A stretch of 50,208 nucleotides of DNA, taken from assembly GCA_964410425.1 (NCBI GenBank), contig CAYPGT010000003.1:4874-55081 (forward strand), in the 5' to 3' direction. This DNA is from an uncultured Gammaproteobacteria bacterium. Its GTDB lineage: Bacteria; Cyanobacteriota; Vampirovibrionia; LMEP-6097. A model generated the notes under the pieces. The model saw nothing but the letters and a program-made list of their open reading frames with translations. It was not told the origin of the DNA and ran no database searches. Position numbers and translations under genes: made by a program. This document shows positions 2,705 to 42,624 of this stretch, piece by piece (the first letter of the stretch is position 1; every line of letters starts with the position of its first letter).

Positions 2705-4755
2705 AACCTAGATTTGTAACCCAGTGGGAATGTTAGTGTTCTCTGGTTTGTTCTGGTGTATTGTAGTGCTGCAGGTGCTGCCATTAGTGCCATAACCCCC
2801 ATCAGTTGTTTTAAGCGGCTTGTATATTGTGCTTCTTTAGCATTTGGTCTGGGATAGAATTCAGCTCTTCTTCTTAATTCGTCTGTTAATCCTAGTCTGT
2901 TAGCCGCATATTTACTAGCACCAGGGACTAGCTGTAACCTAATCTTCTTAAGTCTTTCAGCGAAGACTTTACTGATAACTGGGTCGACATGACCTGTGTT
3001 AATAACTACTTTAAGAGCTTTGAGTAAATTCTTATACAGTTGAGTTTTGCTTTCATGTAGTTTGCCATCCTTACTGTATTGTGCCAGAACGGCTCTGTAA
3101 TCGCCATGCTTCAATACAGCATTAATCATATGATTAACATAGTTAGTGTCATTGATGGTTTGTTTACTGCTTTGCGCGGCTGCTTGAGCACGACCAAAAG
3201 TATGCTTTAAGGAAGATACAGGATTAAATCCATTGATAGCACTATTAGCTAAAGCATCTAATAAAACATTAGCGAAGATTTCTTTCTGTGCTGTTGTCGG
3301 TGGCGTAAGAATGATGCCATGCTCATCAAAATTACCTATCCTGACTAACAGCTTACCAGGCTTAGTAGGATGTTTTAGTACTTCTATATTTTGATTGGCT
3401 CCATGTCTATCATGATCAAAGGGTTTGCCTGTGAGCATCATATATAATTCACTAATAAGAATTGCCAGTGCGATTTCTTTTTTAAGTGAAAGTTTAGCTG
3501 GATCGTTCTTGAAAATATCATTGAAATGTTGACCTTTGAGATCTCTGCAGATCCTAAAATTTTTATTGTAATCAAAGAATCCCGGTGTATGAAACTCTAT
3601 TTCTATATTTGGTAATTCTACTCTTAGTCCTTCATAAAGCTTCTCTGCCATTTTAGCTTTCTCTGGTACTAAAGTTAAATCAGTTTCTTCTTGCATTAAG
3701 TGCTGCGTTTCTTTGAATACATCTACTATTCCTGATAAAGATTCCTTAGCATCTTGTTTCTTGCTCATCAATGCTTCCATGGCATCTATGACTAAATTTA
3801 GTGATGCTTGAGATCTTAGTCCAGCTCCAGGTTTCACTAATTGCAACACGAAATTATTTTCTTTATACTCAGGGTGTTGTTGTAAATATTCTGCTTTGAA
3901 TTTGATCGCGTAAGTATCTAAGTAAGTTCCAGCTCCTCGATGACCATCTATGGGGATCTCAATATTAGTGAATAGTTCAGGGGGAAGAGTTTTTCGGGCT
4001 TGTTTAACAAATGCCTCATAACCCATAGGATCTGCTTCTGATTTAGAGTTCTCCAAGGGAACTTTCCAAGCACTTGGAGTGTTATCGAAGCTATGGATGT
4101 TCTGAGCTAATTTGATTGCCCCAGCTTCCAAAAGAAAAGTAGATAGTCTTTTCCCGAAAATGATTTCATTCATTTCATTCGATTGATTAGTATCAATAGG
4201 ATGGTCATGTATCGCTGTTACCATGGCAGAGAGTACATTAGCAAGCATATCTATATGTCCGCCCTTACCTAAAACCGTTGCTATATAATTTGCAAAATTC
4301 ATACCGTTTTCATATGCACTAGTGCCAGGTCTCTTTTTCTCTGCGTCTTGCCTAGCTTGAGTGTTCATTGGTAGAAATTTTGGTAGTAAAGTGCTCTCAA
4401 TAAAAGTTTTATTCCTGAGTAGAAATCCTATTGATGCACCATTCACTGATATGAGATCTTTAAAGAACTCTGTTCGCTCTTCTCTACTCGAGTCCCAAAA
4501 ATCTTCATAAAACTGTCGATTGGTATCAGCTCTAGTTTCGACATCTGATTTACACAGGAAATTTATTTGATCTTCGACCTCTTGACTATTCTTTGGAGTT
4601 GCTAGTTGAGCTGCAGTCATACCAGTTAAGGGGGTTGTTCTTGTGACTTGTGGCGGATCTATTACTCGTGGTGGATCTACTACTACAGTTGCTATGTTTG
4701 CAGCTGAGGTAGTTGAGCGAGGGATAAGAGATGATAACGAGAATCTCATCAACAT
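2701..4755 (-). CDS. hypothetical 684-aa protein with a possible ABC1/UbiB-like atypical kinase fold
   Basis: Long ORF with a low-complexity S/T/P/V N-terminus. Contains FVLQLVKPGAG (compare ABC1 VAVKVQRPG), GKPFDHDRHGANQNI (compare ABC1 GFFHADPHPGN catalytic loop; nt 3385-3420) and LLVRIGNFDEHG (compare the DFG region). Confidence 0.55.
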   Translation of the reverse strand: MLMRFSLSSLIPRSTTSAANIATVVVDPPRVIDPPQVTRTTPLTGMTAAQLATPKNSQEVEDQINFLCKSDVETRADTNRQFYEDFWDSSREERTEFFKDLISVNGASIGFLLRNKTFIESTLLPKFLPMNTQARQDAEKKRPGTSAYENGMNFANYIATVLGKGGHIDMLANVLSAMVTAIHDHPIDTNQSNEMNEIIFGKRLSTFLLEAGAIKLAQNIHSFDNTPSAWKVPLENSKSEADPMGYEAFVKQARKTLPPELFTNIEIPIDGHRGAGTYLDTYAIKFKAEYLQQHPEYKENNFVLQLVKPGAGLRSQASLNLVIDAMEALMSKKQDAKESLSGIVDVFKETQHLMQEETDLTLVPEKAKMAEKLYEGLRVELPNIEIEFHTPGFFDYNKNFRICRDLKGQHFNDIFKNDPAKLSLKKEIALAILISELYMMLTGKPFDHDRHGANQNIEVLKHPTKPGKLLVRIGNFDEHGIILTPPTTAQKEIFANVLLDALANSAINGFNPVSSLKHTFGRAQAAAQSSKQTINDTNYVNHMINAVLKHGDYRAVLAQYSKDGKLHESKTQLYKNLLKALKVVINTGHVDPVISKVFAERLKKIRLQLVPGASKYAANRLGLTDELRRRAEFYPRPNAKEAQYTSRLKQLMGVMALMAAPAALQYTRTNQRTLTFPLGYKSRF

Positions 4756-40135: not shown

Positions 40136-41689
40136 GTGAGTTACCAACCCTTATTTTTAAGATACCGCCCCCAGAAACTAGCTGATGTTTTGGGACAAGA
40201 TTCAGTTAAAGAGACACTGATCAATGCTATTCAGAATAATAAGATAGTCCATGCTTATCTCTTAACTGGTCCGCGGGGCTCTGGTAAGACCAGTACTGCA
40301 AGAATTATAGCCAAGTCGCTTAATTGTACTAATGCAGTAGATGGCAAGTCACCAAGTTCTAATCCTTGTGGTGTTTGTGATAGTTGTGTGAGTATTACTA
40401 ACTCTTCCAGCATAGATGTAACAGAAATGGATGCTGCATCTCATGGGGGTGTAGAAGATGCGCGCCAATTAATAGAGAGAGTTAATTTAGCAAGTGTTGC
40501 TGGTAAGTATAGAATCTACATCATAGATGAAGTGCATATGCTTAGTAAGGATGCTTTCAATGCTTTATTGAAAACTATTGAAGAACCTCCAGCTAATGTA
40601 ATCTTTATACTAGCTACTACTGAAGTAGATAAGGTGCCTAAGACTATTGCCAGTCGCTGTCAGCAATTGAAGTTCAAGCCTATCTCTATCAATGATTCTT
40701 TAGCGCGTCTTAACTACGTTGCGCAGCAGGAAGGTATCAAGATTGATGAAGCAGCCTTGCAATTGATTGCTGAACATTCAGATGGAGCAATGCGTGATGC
40801 TTTAAGCTTGCTTGACCAGCTTAGTGTGTTTTCTGATGAGAGTTCATCTATTGATGAGAACAAAGTTCTGGAGATACTGGGTGCTGTACCTAGTGATGAA
40901 TTAAATGAGATGTCTAGAAATATTCTAGTGAGAAATGTGGAAGGTCTTTGTAATAAATTAGATGAGCTGGTTATTCGTGGTAAAGAACCTATCAGTATTG
41001 TTAAAGAACTCGCTGATCATTTATTAACTCTATTAGAGAAACTTTCTAGTAAGACCTCTGATGCTAAATTTCAAGATCTAGTCAGTTTGTGCCAGGAAAA
41101 CAATATTGAGAATTATGAATTGGTGCAAATCATAGACTCACTCTCTGAGCTTGAAGTTCGCTTGAAACAAAGTACTCAGAATAAAAACATACTCAAAGCT
41201 TGGCTGATTAAAATTGCATATAGAGCTGATATTTTGGTGGTAAAAGATTTGTTGTCTCGTATAGAGAAATTAGAGAGTGGCTCAATGCTCAATGCTCAAC
41301 AGGCAACTCCAGTTTTTTCTAAGCCAGAAAGGATAGTTCATGTGCGACCACTGGTTATTGAAGAAGAAAATATAAGCAGGGATGATAAACCGTTGAGCGT
41401 TGAGCGCTCAGCATTCAGCGAAACCTCTAATGATTTCCTTGATTACCTTTCCCCTGGTTCTAAGGGAATGCTTATAAGCAGCCAGGCACAGTTGATAGAG
41501 ATTAACGATGGTGTTGCTTTGATGAAAATGCCTGATAAGTTTAAGTTTCTTAAGTCTAAATTAGAATCTAGAGCAGATGAGTTGATATCCGCTATTCAAA
41601 AATCATCAGGTAAGGATCTTAAGTCATTAAATATAGAAGTAGTGATGCTTAGTGAAATGCCAACGGTGAGTCCCAGGCAAAGCAACTGA
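40136..41689 (+). CDS. dnaX: DNA polymerase III subunit gamma/tau (0-frame product, 517 aa)
   Basis: YRPQKLADVLGQ, GPRGSGKTS, zinc module CGVCDSC, DEVHMLS and SRCQ. GTG start. Ends at tandem TGA TGA. Confidence 0.9.
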   Translation: MSYQPLFLRYRPQKLADVLGQDSVKETLINAIQNNKIVHAYLLTGPRGSGKTSTARIIAKSLNCTNAVDGKSPSSNPCGVCDSCVSITNSSSIDVTEMDAASHGGVEDARQLIERVNLASVAGKYRIYIIDEVHMLSKDAFNALLKTIEEPPANVIFILATTEVDKVPKTIASRCQQLKFKPISINDSLARLNYVAQQEGIKIDEAALQLIAEHSDGAMRDALSLLDQLSVFSDESSSIDENKVLEILGAVPSDELNEMSRNILVRNVEGLCNKLDELVIRGKEPISIVKELADHLLTLLEKLSSKTSDAKFQDLVSLCQENNIENYELVQIIDSLSELEVRLKQSTQNKNILKAWLIKIAYRADILVVKDLLSRIEKLESGSMLNAQQATPVFSKPERIVHVRPLVIEEENISRDDKPLSVERSAFSETSNDFLDYLSPGSKGMLISSQAQLIEINDGVALMKMPDKFKFLKSKLESRADELISAIQKSSGKDLKSLNIEVVMLSEMPTVSPRQSN

Positions 41690-41909
41690 TGATATAGTCG
41701 TTCAAGCCCCTAAGAATATATCTCTTAAACAAACTAATCCACTAGATGATTTGGTTCCTGGTTCGGCTAAAGTTTTTGAGAAAAATGATGAAGATTTAAT
41801 TAGTTCTAGAGATGCGGAAATTGAGTCTGTTAACAGAGCTACCAGAACTAAGCTTGATGAAGTAGTAGAAGCTGGATTGAATATATTTGGTGGTAGAGTG
41901 CTCAAGTAG
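41670..41909 (+). CDS. dnaX: dnaX 3' segment, open only in the +1 frame (DnaX/tau-like C-terminal tail)
   Basis: No start codon. The +1 frame is open from 41670 and encodes ...DDIVVQAPKNISLKQ...TKLDEVVEAGLNIFGGRVLK*, which ends in the hydrophobic-x-x-F-G-G-x-V tail typical of DnaX C-termini. Confidence 0.5.
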   Translation, partial: VPGKATDDIVVQAPKNISLKQTNPLDDLVPGSAKVFEKNDEDLISSRDAEIESVNRATRTKLDEVVEAGLNIFGGRVLK

Positions 41910-42624
41910 CGACCAGCATTGGACCTTTAACAGAACCTTCTCTAAATTGTGTTGCGTATGGGTTGTTATTCTTTATGTCGAATAGTTCTTCAGGACTACC
42001 TTCCCATACTATCTTAGTATCGTAAAGCATAGCTACTCTATTACAAGCACGTTTGATAGTGGAAGCTTGGTGTGTCACTAAGATACTTGCAGCTTTAGTT
42101 CGGTTTTGTAATGTAGTAATCAAATCTTCAATAATAGTACTTGCCACAGGATCTAGTCCAGCAGTGGGTTCGTCATAAAGAATAATCTCTGGATCATTAA
42201 CAATAGCTCTAGCAAAACTAATTCTCTTTCTCATACCACCTGAGAGTTCACTAGGAAATTTTTCTTCAATGCCTGGTAATCCTACGAGGCTGAGTCTTTC
42301 TGAAATTATCCTGGATATCTCAAACTCCGGTAGCGCTACTTTGATATCCTTACCAACTCTTAAGGGAAAGCTAATATTATCCGCTATGTTCATAGAATCA
42401 AACAAAGCAGAATACTGAAATGCCATACCAACCTTCTCCGAACCTAATTTTATTTCTCCAGAATCTGCAGGCTCAAGACCAGCAACAATTTTAAGAAGTG
42501 TACTTTTACCGCAACCTGAGAAACCTATTAAGGCTAGAACTTCCCCTTTGCGAACCTCAAGACTAATCTTGTCCAATATTTTATTGGAGTTATATGATTT
42601 CGATAAGTTGCTAATTTTGATCAT
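41902..42624 (-). CDS. ABC transporter ATP-binding protein, MlaF-like (solitary)
   Basis: Walker A GFSGCGKST, LSGGMRKR and ILYDEPTAGLDP. The C-terminal GSPEELF...NPYATQFREGSVKGP resembles MlaF. Confidence 0.75.
   Translation of the reverse strand: MIKISNLSKSYNSNKILDKISLEVRKGEVLALIGFSGCGKSTLLKIVAGLEPADSGEIKLGSEKVGMAFQYSALFDSMNIADNISFPLRVGKDIKVALPEFEISRIISERLSLVGLPGIEEKFPSELSGGMRKRISFARAIVNDPEIILYDEPTAGLDPVASTIIEDLITTLQNRTKAASILVTHQASTIKRACNRVAMLYDTKIVWEGSPEELFDIKNNNPYATQFREGSVKGPMLVAT

Follow-up and report, generated by a model that had tools for sequence, protein, structure and literature searches.

The dnaX gene of the window, a stretch of 50,208 nucleotides (nt) on contig CAYPGT010000003.1 from an uncultured bacterium, very probably contains a programmed +1 ribosomal frameshift. 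The proposed shift takes place at the heptamer CCC_AGG_C, seven codons past the last folded domain of the protein, and would join the 0-frame product to a conserved tail encoded in the +1 frame. Positions without a locus name refer to the window, and the coordinates of the features are collected in Table 1.

Reading frames of the dnaX gene

By its sequence matches, the gene is dnaX beyond doubt. The 0-frame protein matched NCBIfam TIGR02397 (dnaX_nterm, E 1.7e-121) and PRK05563 (E 1.7e-130), both above cut-off, as well as the Pfam families DNA_pol3_delta2 and DNAX_ATPase_lid. In this protein, a linker of low complexity connects clamp-loader domains I–III to a small folded domain at the C-terminus. 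The protein ends with ...EMPTVSPRQSN, followed by TGA at 41687-41689 and a second TGA at 41690-41692. The +1 frame is open from 41670 to a TAG at 41907-41909. Since a +1-frame TGA lies at 41667-41669 and the 0-frame stop ends at 41689, the frame change is confined to 20 nt (41670-41689), which read GTCCCAGGCAAAGCAACTGA. After the CCC codon at 41672-41674, the first +1 codon is GGC at 41676. The fused product has 590 amino acids (aa), 73 more than the 517-aa 0-frame product, with 77 residues after CCC and the ending KLDEVVEAGLNIFGGRVLK. An earlier sequence-only reading of this stretch had described the same tandem stops, the same open +1 frame (41670-41909), 73 further residues, and a frame change possible only within 41670-41689; all of these were reproduced.

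Reassignment of the stop codons was considered and rejected. Many further 0-frame stops of all three kinds occur past 41692, and the relatives end in TGA, TAA, or TAG.

Accuracy of the sequence

A sequencing or assembly error, in which one base is missing and the true gene is continuous, had to be weighed, as a single-base frame break is the commonest artefact. Contigs assembled separately from four runs of one freshwater sample (X1–X4) were compared with positions 41300-42000. X1–X3 showed 0 mismatches and 0 gaps, and X4 differed by one base substitution at 41829, also without a gap. The depth was ~71-106x in X1–X4 and 129-132x in total at the site, including two co-occurring related populations, and no insertion or deletion (indel) variant at the shift site was reported in the four per-run assemblies, which agree on the site. 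In runs X3 and X4 (41500-41700), the window strain was present at ~71-87x, together with a population similar to L004 at 26-39x and one similar to L003 at ~19x; contigs of all three populations span the shift site without gaps. A long homopolymer is absent from the site, and the break recurs at the same codon in nine other loci with seven unrelated data sources.

Near-identical contigs from two drinking-water metagenomes with 3-4x depth (X5 and X6) break on either side of the site and miss 41651-41715. The X5 contig ends at 41650 and resumes at 41719, and X6 starts at 41716, leaving the shift site uncovered in both. This gap is probably a coverage drop-out; a local variant is less likely. An error as the source of the break is effectively refuted: the frame break is real.

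The sequence-only reading had named an assembly error and a fresh mutation as alternatives to recoding. Both fail, given the X1–X4 contigs without an indel and the nine loci with the same break. It had also proposed a check at the read level and a comparison of related genomes. The per-run contigs are collinear with the window and hold no extra base, and the frame break with its CCC context is conserved in the nine further loci described below.

Conservation of the break site in relatives

A search with the fused C-terminal region returned P0001 and P0002, in which one open reading frame (ORF) encodes the C-terminal domain, the same tail, and between them a linker that varies. Proteins of this family thus normally end with the tail, in line with its earlier description as the natural continuation of DnaX. 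By the source names of its matches, the 0-frame protein falls among Melainabacteria/Vampirovibrionia DnaX, and the matches also included a set of proteins whose called ends resemble that of the window protein (Table 1).

DNA was read at ten frame-broken loci, namely the window and nine relatives (L003–L011), seven of which come from unrelated data sources (JGI, ENA, an NCBI assembly, and four different SRA runs). All ten loci (10 of 10) have CCC at the break: two read CCC TAG C, one reads CCC TGA T, and the remaining seven, the window among them, read CCC AGG C. The A-site codon would thus be AGG in seven loci and a stop (UAG/UGA) in three, the latter forming the stop class. In all ten, the tail motif is open solely in the +1 frame, over 55-89 codons. 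CCC is preceded at 2 nt by a +1-frame stop in the window group and directly followed by a 0-frame stop in the stop group. The overlap of the ten permitted shift regions is the CCC codon alone, so that the shift would fall at CCC if the event is homologous across the clade. A +1 shift at CCC with AGG in the A site had been predicted from the window sequence, and the prediction is supported by the retention of CCC in nine other loci, followed by AGG, TAG, or TGA.

Around the site, the block AGTCCCAGGCAAAGCA is invariant in the window, L004, and L003, while neighbouring synonymous positions vary freely. The bases 5' of CCC (window 41665-41671) are GGTGAGT in the window, GGTAAGT in L004, GTTAAGT in L003, and TGTAAGT in L006. 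The conserved [TG][AG]AGT places a +1-frame stop (TGA/TAA) immediately 5' of the shift site in these four loci. Its likeness to the eukaryotic 5' splice-site consensus is presumably a coincidence.

In a neighbour-joining tree of the N-terminal 395 residues, the frame-broken proteins of the main group (13 of 13) fell into one clade, in which the AGG and stop variants are interleaved and which is sister to continuous genes. P0026 lies outside this clade, beside a continuous gene. Whole-protein identity within the frame-broken clade goes down to ~61%. Given the single clade, the interleaved variants, and this divergence, the break appears to be old and maintained; it would therefore have arisen once or a few times, long ago, and then been kept. 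A recent mutation does not explain it. When 1.84 billion representatives were searched with a profile of the C-terminal region, only 18 matched and no loci were added, and on this sequence evidence the C-terminal domain is confined to this lineage.

Selection on the tail in the +1 frame

A comparison of the window with L004 shows ten changed codons in the tail motif, each a synonymous change when read in +1. Relative to L003 and L004, every indel of the +1 region is a multiple of 3. For the tail core (15 codons, 10 loci, 45 pairs), the proportion of synonymous differences (pS) is 0.75, which is saturated, and that of nonsynonymous differences (pN) is 0.16. The ratio of nonsynonymous to synonymous rates (dN/dS) over the whole tail is only moderately low (0.32-0.61) because the linker between the site and the tail is barely constrained; the linker of continuous relatives is likewise variable in length and sequence. 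Purifying selection acts on the tail in the +1 frame, and its signal sits in the terminal motif.

These values bear on the view that a genuine frameshift mutation truncated DnaX in this lineage and left the tail as a decaying untranslated remnant. Such a loss would be compatible with a 0-frame product that retains all clamp-loader domains and the small C-terminal fold, and with the poor conservation of the linker past the break. However, the tail motif is intact in +1 in ten loci despite the saturation of synonymous sites, the indels keep to multiples of 3, the +1 frame is open in every locus, and the break always falls at CCC followed by AGG or a stop, which random mutation leaves unexplained. 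We regard truncation as highly improbable.

A split gene, in which the tail ORF is translated separately as a small protein by internal initiation or termination-reinitiation, is unlikely. Separate ORFs of 52-88 aa are called in some loci, and the window offers a TTG at 41751. This TTG is the first start in the window, 27 codons in, and it is absent from L003. No start codon is conserved, and neither the window nor the stop class has a +1-frame ATG, GTG, or TTG at the junction. In the window group, 41670 is the first position at which the +1 frame is open, and the linker ahead of any such start is kept in frame too. Separate translation would not require the conservation of CCC, and a free tail could not do the work of tau, which is to hold the polymerase on the clamp loader.

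Predicted structure of the C-terminal region

The fused C-terminal 159 residues were modelled with AlphaFold2 using a 12-sequence alignment. DnaX residues 432-505 were predicted as a domain with a predicted local distance difference test (pLDDT) score of 94-97 (residues 1-72 of the model) and a KH-like topology (alpha-alpha-beta-beta-alpha-alpha-beta). The linker after the break scored below 50, and a helix at model residues 141-153 over the tail motif scored ~75. A Foldseek search with the domain model returned DciA (8a3v_D) and DnaA domain I (4tps_B and 2e0g), with weak E-values of 0.02-0.06; the tau C-terminal chain of the E. coli polymerase complex (5fkv_E) followed at rank 9, with a probability of 0.80 and a weak E-value in the same range. 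The modelled fold thus resembles DnaA domain I, DciA, and tau domain V, with weak scores. Sequence searches linked neither the C-terminal domain nor the tail meaningfully to a Pfam family or a solved structure. The last ~23 residues of E. coli tau bind DNA polymerase III's alpha subunit, and by analogy the tail is presumed to be the polymerase-binding end of tau.

Proposed mechanism of the shift

We infer the ribosomal nature of the event, its efficiency, and the functions of its products, and propose the following steps. The ribosome would pause with peptidyl-tRNA-Pro on CCC, since the A-site AGG (UAG/UGA in the sister lineages) would be decoded slowly. The peptidyl-tRNA-Pro would then re-pair one base downstream, with CCA in the window and CCU in the stop-codon lineages; in both cases the P-site codon can be re-paired in +1. 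GGC would be read next, and +1 translation would continue through the disordered linker to the conserved tail, giving the 590-aa protein. Ribosomes that do not shift would read AGG CAA AGC AAC and halt at TGA TGA, giving the 517-aa protein without linker and tail. If E. coli tau is a guide, polymerase tethering would fall to the long form, while the other would act as a tail-less, gamma-like clamp-loader subunit.

The codons of the site were examined in the window. The CCC codon is used 3.7 times per 1000 codons. AGG, which the sequence-only reading had described as often rare, occurs 5.0 times per 1000 codons and makes up 11.5% of Arg codons, a moderate rarity only. In the three stop-class loci, UAG or UGA provides the kind of slow A-site codon expected at such a site. 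Among 35 long window ORFs, the in-frame pair CCC-AGG is found at the dnaX site only, with 0.26 expected, so this carries no statistical weight.

The same protein would result from quadruplet decoding, in which CCCA or CCCU is taken as a single codon by a specialised tRNA-Pro whose anticodon loop is expanded. Derivatives of tRNA-Pro such as SufB2 are reported to do so at CCC-N. Set against this, the fourth base varies by lineage (A or U), and such a tRNA would threaten every CCC-A and CCC-U in the proteome, where the window alone holds 53 in-frame CCC codons, many of them followed by A or T. Quadruplet decoding is accordingly considered very unlikely.

Possible stimulatory elements

The motif GGTGAG ends just 5' of CCC in the window, and the sequence-only reading had compared it with the Shine-Dalgarno (SD) element of prfB. 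The motif is present at 41665-41670, and its predicted duplex with a generic anti-SD sequence reaches -7.6 kcal/mol. The corresponding values are -2.9 in L004, +0.1 in L003, and -0.3 kcal/mol in L006, so the element is specific to the window and the closest relatives lack the pairing. Of the other loci, only L011 has another SD-like motif, GGGAG. A prfB-style SD as a conserved or required stimulator was rejected, as GGTAAG (L004), GTTAAG (L003), and TGTAAG (L006) offer no useful anti-SD pairing. In the window strain itself, GGTGAG may stimulate shifting.

SD use in general was assessed from the -20 to -3 regions of 35 window ORFs, a rough test given that the ORF starts were set mechanically. 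The mean anti-SD pairing was -2.2 kcal/mol, versus -3.0 kcal/mol in random windows, and a strong SD-like motif was found upstream of 3 of the 35 ORFs. Pairing was thus no better than at random, and initiation led by an SD appears to be of minor importance in this organism.

A different 5' element was found in the stop class. All three loci (3 of 3) have a hairpin of 11 base pairs (bp) and a 5-nt loop, whose end lies exactly 2 nt 5' of CCC. Its arms differ in sequence between the loci, with compensatory changes at 5 pairs and 0 broken pairs, and the z-scores are -4.2 to -4.3. A 12-bp hairpin, also 2 nt before CCC, is present in L010 (z -3.0), and L008 has a hairpin 6 nt away (z -3.0). On the 5' side of the window group, RNAalifold returned only a weak 5-bp helix. 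According to PMC6321510, a refolding 5' hairpin stimulates +1 and damps -1 shifting, mimicking an SD duplex. The 3' arm of the stop-class hairpin would lie inside the ribosome while CCC occupies the P site, and refolding would pull the mRNA in the +1 direction. In the window, the heptamer may suffice by itself or be assisted by the SD-like motif found only there, and this is the weakest part of the mechanism.

Several points weigh against a programmed +1 shift as described here. Regarding stimulation, no significant 5' hairpin was found in the window, L004, L003, or L006 (z -0.8 to +0.3), and within 70 nt downstream nothing conserved or significant was found in the window group. AGG is only moderately rare. 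The window contains no tRNA genes, and no RNA runs holding the window sequence were found in the search. Regarding the comparative evidence, L003 and L004 share the sample of the window, stop-class DNA was read at 3 loci only (P0013, P0017, and P0018 are known from protein ends alone), and the neighbour-joining tree has no support values. Regarding the products, binding of alpha by the tail is an analogy only, and the 517-aa form, which in the model keeps the domain V-like fold, is no strict equivalent of E. coli gamma.

Comparison with known recoding systems

The textbook solutions by which dnaX yields two subunits are -1 ribosomal frameshifting, transcriptional slippage, and proteolysis. In E. 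coli, the -1 shift occurs at A_AAA_AAG with a 5' SD and a 3' stem-loop, and the frameshift product is gamma. The present case involves the same gene, with a common N-terminal clamp-loader part, two C-termini, and an alternative frame that ends a few codons on. It differs in the event, which is a -1 shift on a Lys heptamer in E. coli and would be a +1 shift at CCC here. It also differs in the outcome: frameshifting in E. coli makes the short gamma without domains IV and V, whereas here it would yield the long form, with only the linker and tail missing from the short one.

In Thermus thermophilus, dnaX undergoes transcriptional slippage on a run of nine A (A9). The same gene again gives two products, in that case by an RNA polymerase event on a homopolymer of a kind absent from the window. 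Neither an E. coli-type A_AAA_AAG nor a poly-A run of the Thermus/Chlorobi type is present in 41627-41700. For the window, we also considered that the frame might be restored in the RNA, either through slippage of the Thermus dnaX kind during transcription or through editing that removes one base. Slippage on A-runs is used by dnaX of other bacteria (PMC3711429, PMC5009743), and the relative L014 has a run of ten A (A10) at its own frame break. The longest run of identical bases at the window site is 3 (CCC, AAA), while known slippage needs ~7-10 A or T, and the alternation of AGG and stop codons after CCC fits a ribosomal A-site effect and not RNA polymerase. An RNA-level event therefore has a very small probability.

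The prfB gene, which encodes release factor 2 (RF2), is shifted +1 at CUU_UGA_C with an SD 3 nt upstream. As proposed for dnaX, a peptidyl-tRNA slips +1 there on a re-pairable codon before a slow A site, with a 5' element near the P site, and the stop-class sites CCC_UAG_C and CCC_UGA_U have exactly the prfB layout. The slippery codon is CUU in prfB and CCC here. A conserved SD is lacking in dnaX, where the 5' element, if present, is an mRNA hairpin, and no autoregulatory logic is evident.

Other described sites share single components with the window heptamer. CCC_UGA is an established +1 site in the tsh/cps genes of Listeria phage and in E. coli pheL (PMC5009743). L007 has the same P-site codon with a stop in the A site. 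Unlike dnaX, a conserved chromosomal replication gene, those cases concern phage tail or capsid genes or an incidental event in a leader peptide, and the A site of the window is the sense codon AGG. The Ty1 site CUU_AGG_C, with GGC as the first +1 codon, gives ~40% shifting in yeast without other signals (PMC5009743). The AGG_C context and the GGC first codon of Ty1/ABP140 are shared by CCC_AGG_C in seven loci, but the slipping tRNA is a eukaryotic tRNA-Leu(UAG) on CUU there and would be a bacterial tRNA-Pro on CCC here. In Ty1 the shift is driven by a slow AGG in the A site. In sequence, the CCC_AGG_C of the window combines the P site of the CCC_UGA type with the AGG_C of the Ty1 type.

Recoding-dependent tau has precedents. 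In two-ORF dnaX genes of Chlorobi and others, tau needs recoding, with the downstream ORF at -1 at the DNA level and mostly poly-A at the site (PMC3711429, Antonov et al. 2013). In those genes too, 0-frame stops lie right past the site and the longer subunit arises solely by recoding, but none is +1 at CCC (PMC3711429). A single base change can reverse which dnaX product needs the shift (2016 review). The sequence-only reading had called a +1 version of dnaX recoding new. This holds for the site, as no report of a +1 dnaX site, at CCC or elsewhere, or of any recoding in Melainabacteria dnaX was found in the open-access literature searched; it does not hold for the dependence of tau on recoding, already known from -1 and poly-A cases (PMC3711429). 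The +1 CCC site therefore appears to be the new part.

Wider pattern in related dnaX genes

In the continuous relatives L012 (3043-3060), L001 (419-436), and L013 (3148-3165), the homologous Ser-Pro-Arg is encoded as TC[TC] CCC CGG. This CGG is the sole CGG among the sampled Arg codons, which number 42 in L012, 16 in L001, and 35 in L013. A +1 slip at CCC_C in these genes meets a TAG after 1 codon (L012 and L001) or 4 codons (L013). Judged from these sequences, such a slip may make the short form, with the 0-frame giving the long form. The broken L011 (CCC AGG CAC AGC AGT AAC TAA) and the continuous L013 (CCC CGG CAC ACC AGT ATA GAA) are near-identical around the site, with opposite polarity. 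We tentatively consider, with less than even confidence, that the CCC site is a two-way isoform switch across this Melainabacteria group, with its polarity reversed in the window clade.

Two further dnaX genes show frame breaks of other kinds. In L015 (2995-3030, P0067), a Melainabacteria-type dnaX ends with GCA GCC CCA AAG TAA and has its tail (...RLKEIADAAINLFAGKELS) in the -1 frame; its C_CCA_AAG is a canonical -1 slippery heptamer with a 0-frame stop directly after it. In L014 (2050-2080, P0025), the break lies at ATG CCC GAA AAA AAA AAC, which contains the A10 run, and the tail is in +1, while close relatives read EKKT in frame. The L014 break could be a homopolymer error, Thermus-like transcriptional slippage, or a frameshift. 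L014 (3 kb) and L015 (Logan) are each represented by one contig and could be errors. Taken together, the sequences suggest possible selection in the phylum for a set proportion of DnaX with and without the tail, a need that may have been solved in at least three ways, namely the CCC site, the -1 heptamer, and the A10 run.

If true, a selected, clade-wide +1 site at CCC would be a further and mechanistically opposite solution to dnaX recoding, and it would be among very few conserved +1 sites in bacterial chromosomal genes besides prfB. The natural series of sites, with CCC followed by AGG, UAG, or UGA and with or without a covarying 5' hairpin, amounts to a comparative experiment on what drives +1 slippage of tRNA-Pro. 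For the annotation of metagenome-assembled genomes (MAGs), these dnaX genes are now called as truncated or "partial" together with orphan small ORFs, and they should be annotated as one recoded gene.

Feature map and neighbouring genes

Past the 0-frame stop, a gap of 212 nt that would otherwise be empty is occupied by the tail ORF, whose end overlaps the 3' end of a convergent ABC-type ATPase gene (Table 1). Relatives show the same tail-to-tail order of dnaX and this gene, as in L012, where the continuous dnaX stops at 3288 and the ABC gene occupies 3285-4007. The 67-aa antisense ORF, already taken for an artefact in the sequence-only reading, exists, but nothing supports it independently. 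It mirrors the tail frame and is an artefact; the strand opposite to it is under the coding constraint of the +1 frame. The two frames differ in their tryptic peptides: the junction peptide of a +1 shift at CCC is SLNIEVVMLSEMPTVSPGK, and its 0-frame counterpart is SLNIEVVMLSEMPTVSPR.

Table 1. Features of the dnaX region in the window, and break sites, hairpins, and called protein ends in relatives.
Feature	Position	Strand	Details
dnaX 0-frame ORF	40136..41689	+	GTG start, 517 aa; from the ORF list
Folded C-terminal domain, NDFLDYLSPGSKGM...NIEVVML	41429..41650	+	aa 432-505; AlphaFold2 model
SD-like GGTGAG	41665..41670	+	Ends 1 nt 5' of CCC; GGTGA core 2 nt 5'
TGA in +1 frame	41667..41669	+	5' limit of possible shift region; equivalent TAA/TGA in L004, L003, L006
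Proposed +1 shift heptamer CCC_AGG_C	41672..41678	+	CCC (Pro513) as P site, AGG as A site
+1-frame continuation	41676..41909	+	77 codons and TAG; disordered linker, then conserved tail
Tandem 0-frame stops TGA TGA	41687..41692	+	End the short product 4 codons past the shift site
Antisense 67-aa ORF	41702..41905	-	Mirrors the +1 tail frame
Conserved C-terminal tail KLDEVVEAGLNIFGGRVLK	41850..41906	+	Predicted helical; motif ends all continuous relatives
Convergent ABC-type ATPase gene	41902..42624	-	3' end overlaps end of tail ORF by 8 nt (41902-41909)
Stop-class 5' hairpin	L005:1025-1051, L009:3023-3049, L007:3029-3055		No equivalent in window
Break site, window and L004			GT[GA] AGT CCC AGG CAA AGC AAC TGA
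Break site, L003			TTA AGT CCC AGG CAA AGC AGC TGA
Break site, L006			GTA AGT CCC AGG CAA CGC AAT TAA
Break site, L008 and L010			[CT]CT AGT CCC AGG CAA AGC TGA
Break site, L011			TTA CCC AGG CAC AGC AGT AAC TAA
Break site, L005 and L009 (stop class)			AAT CCC TAG C
Break site, L007 (stop class)			AAT CCC TGA T
Called proteins ending ...SPRQSN, SPRQSS, SPRQRN, or SPRQS			P0003-6, P0008, P0015
Called protein ending ...LPRHSSN			P0026
Called proteins ending ...ASNP or AANP			P0007, P0013, P0014, P0017, P0018, P0035

The MAGs that contain L003 and L004 (CAZELI01 and CAZKAT01) are labelled "uncultured Gammaproteobacteria bacterium". In both, DnaX and the genes around it cluster with proteins labelled Candidatus Melainabacteria, Vampirovibrionia, or Cyanobacteriota, and the "Gammaproteobacteria" label of these two records is probably wrong.

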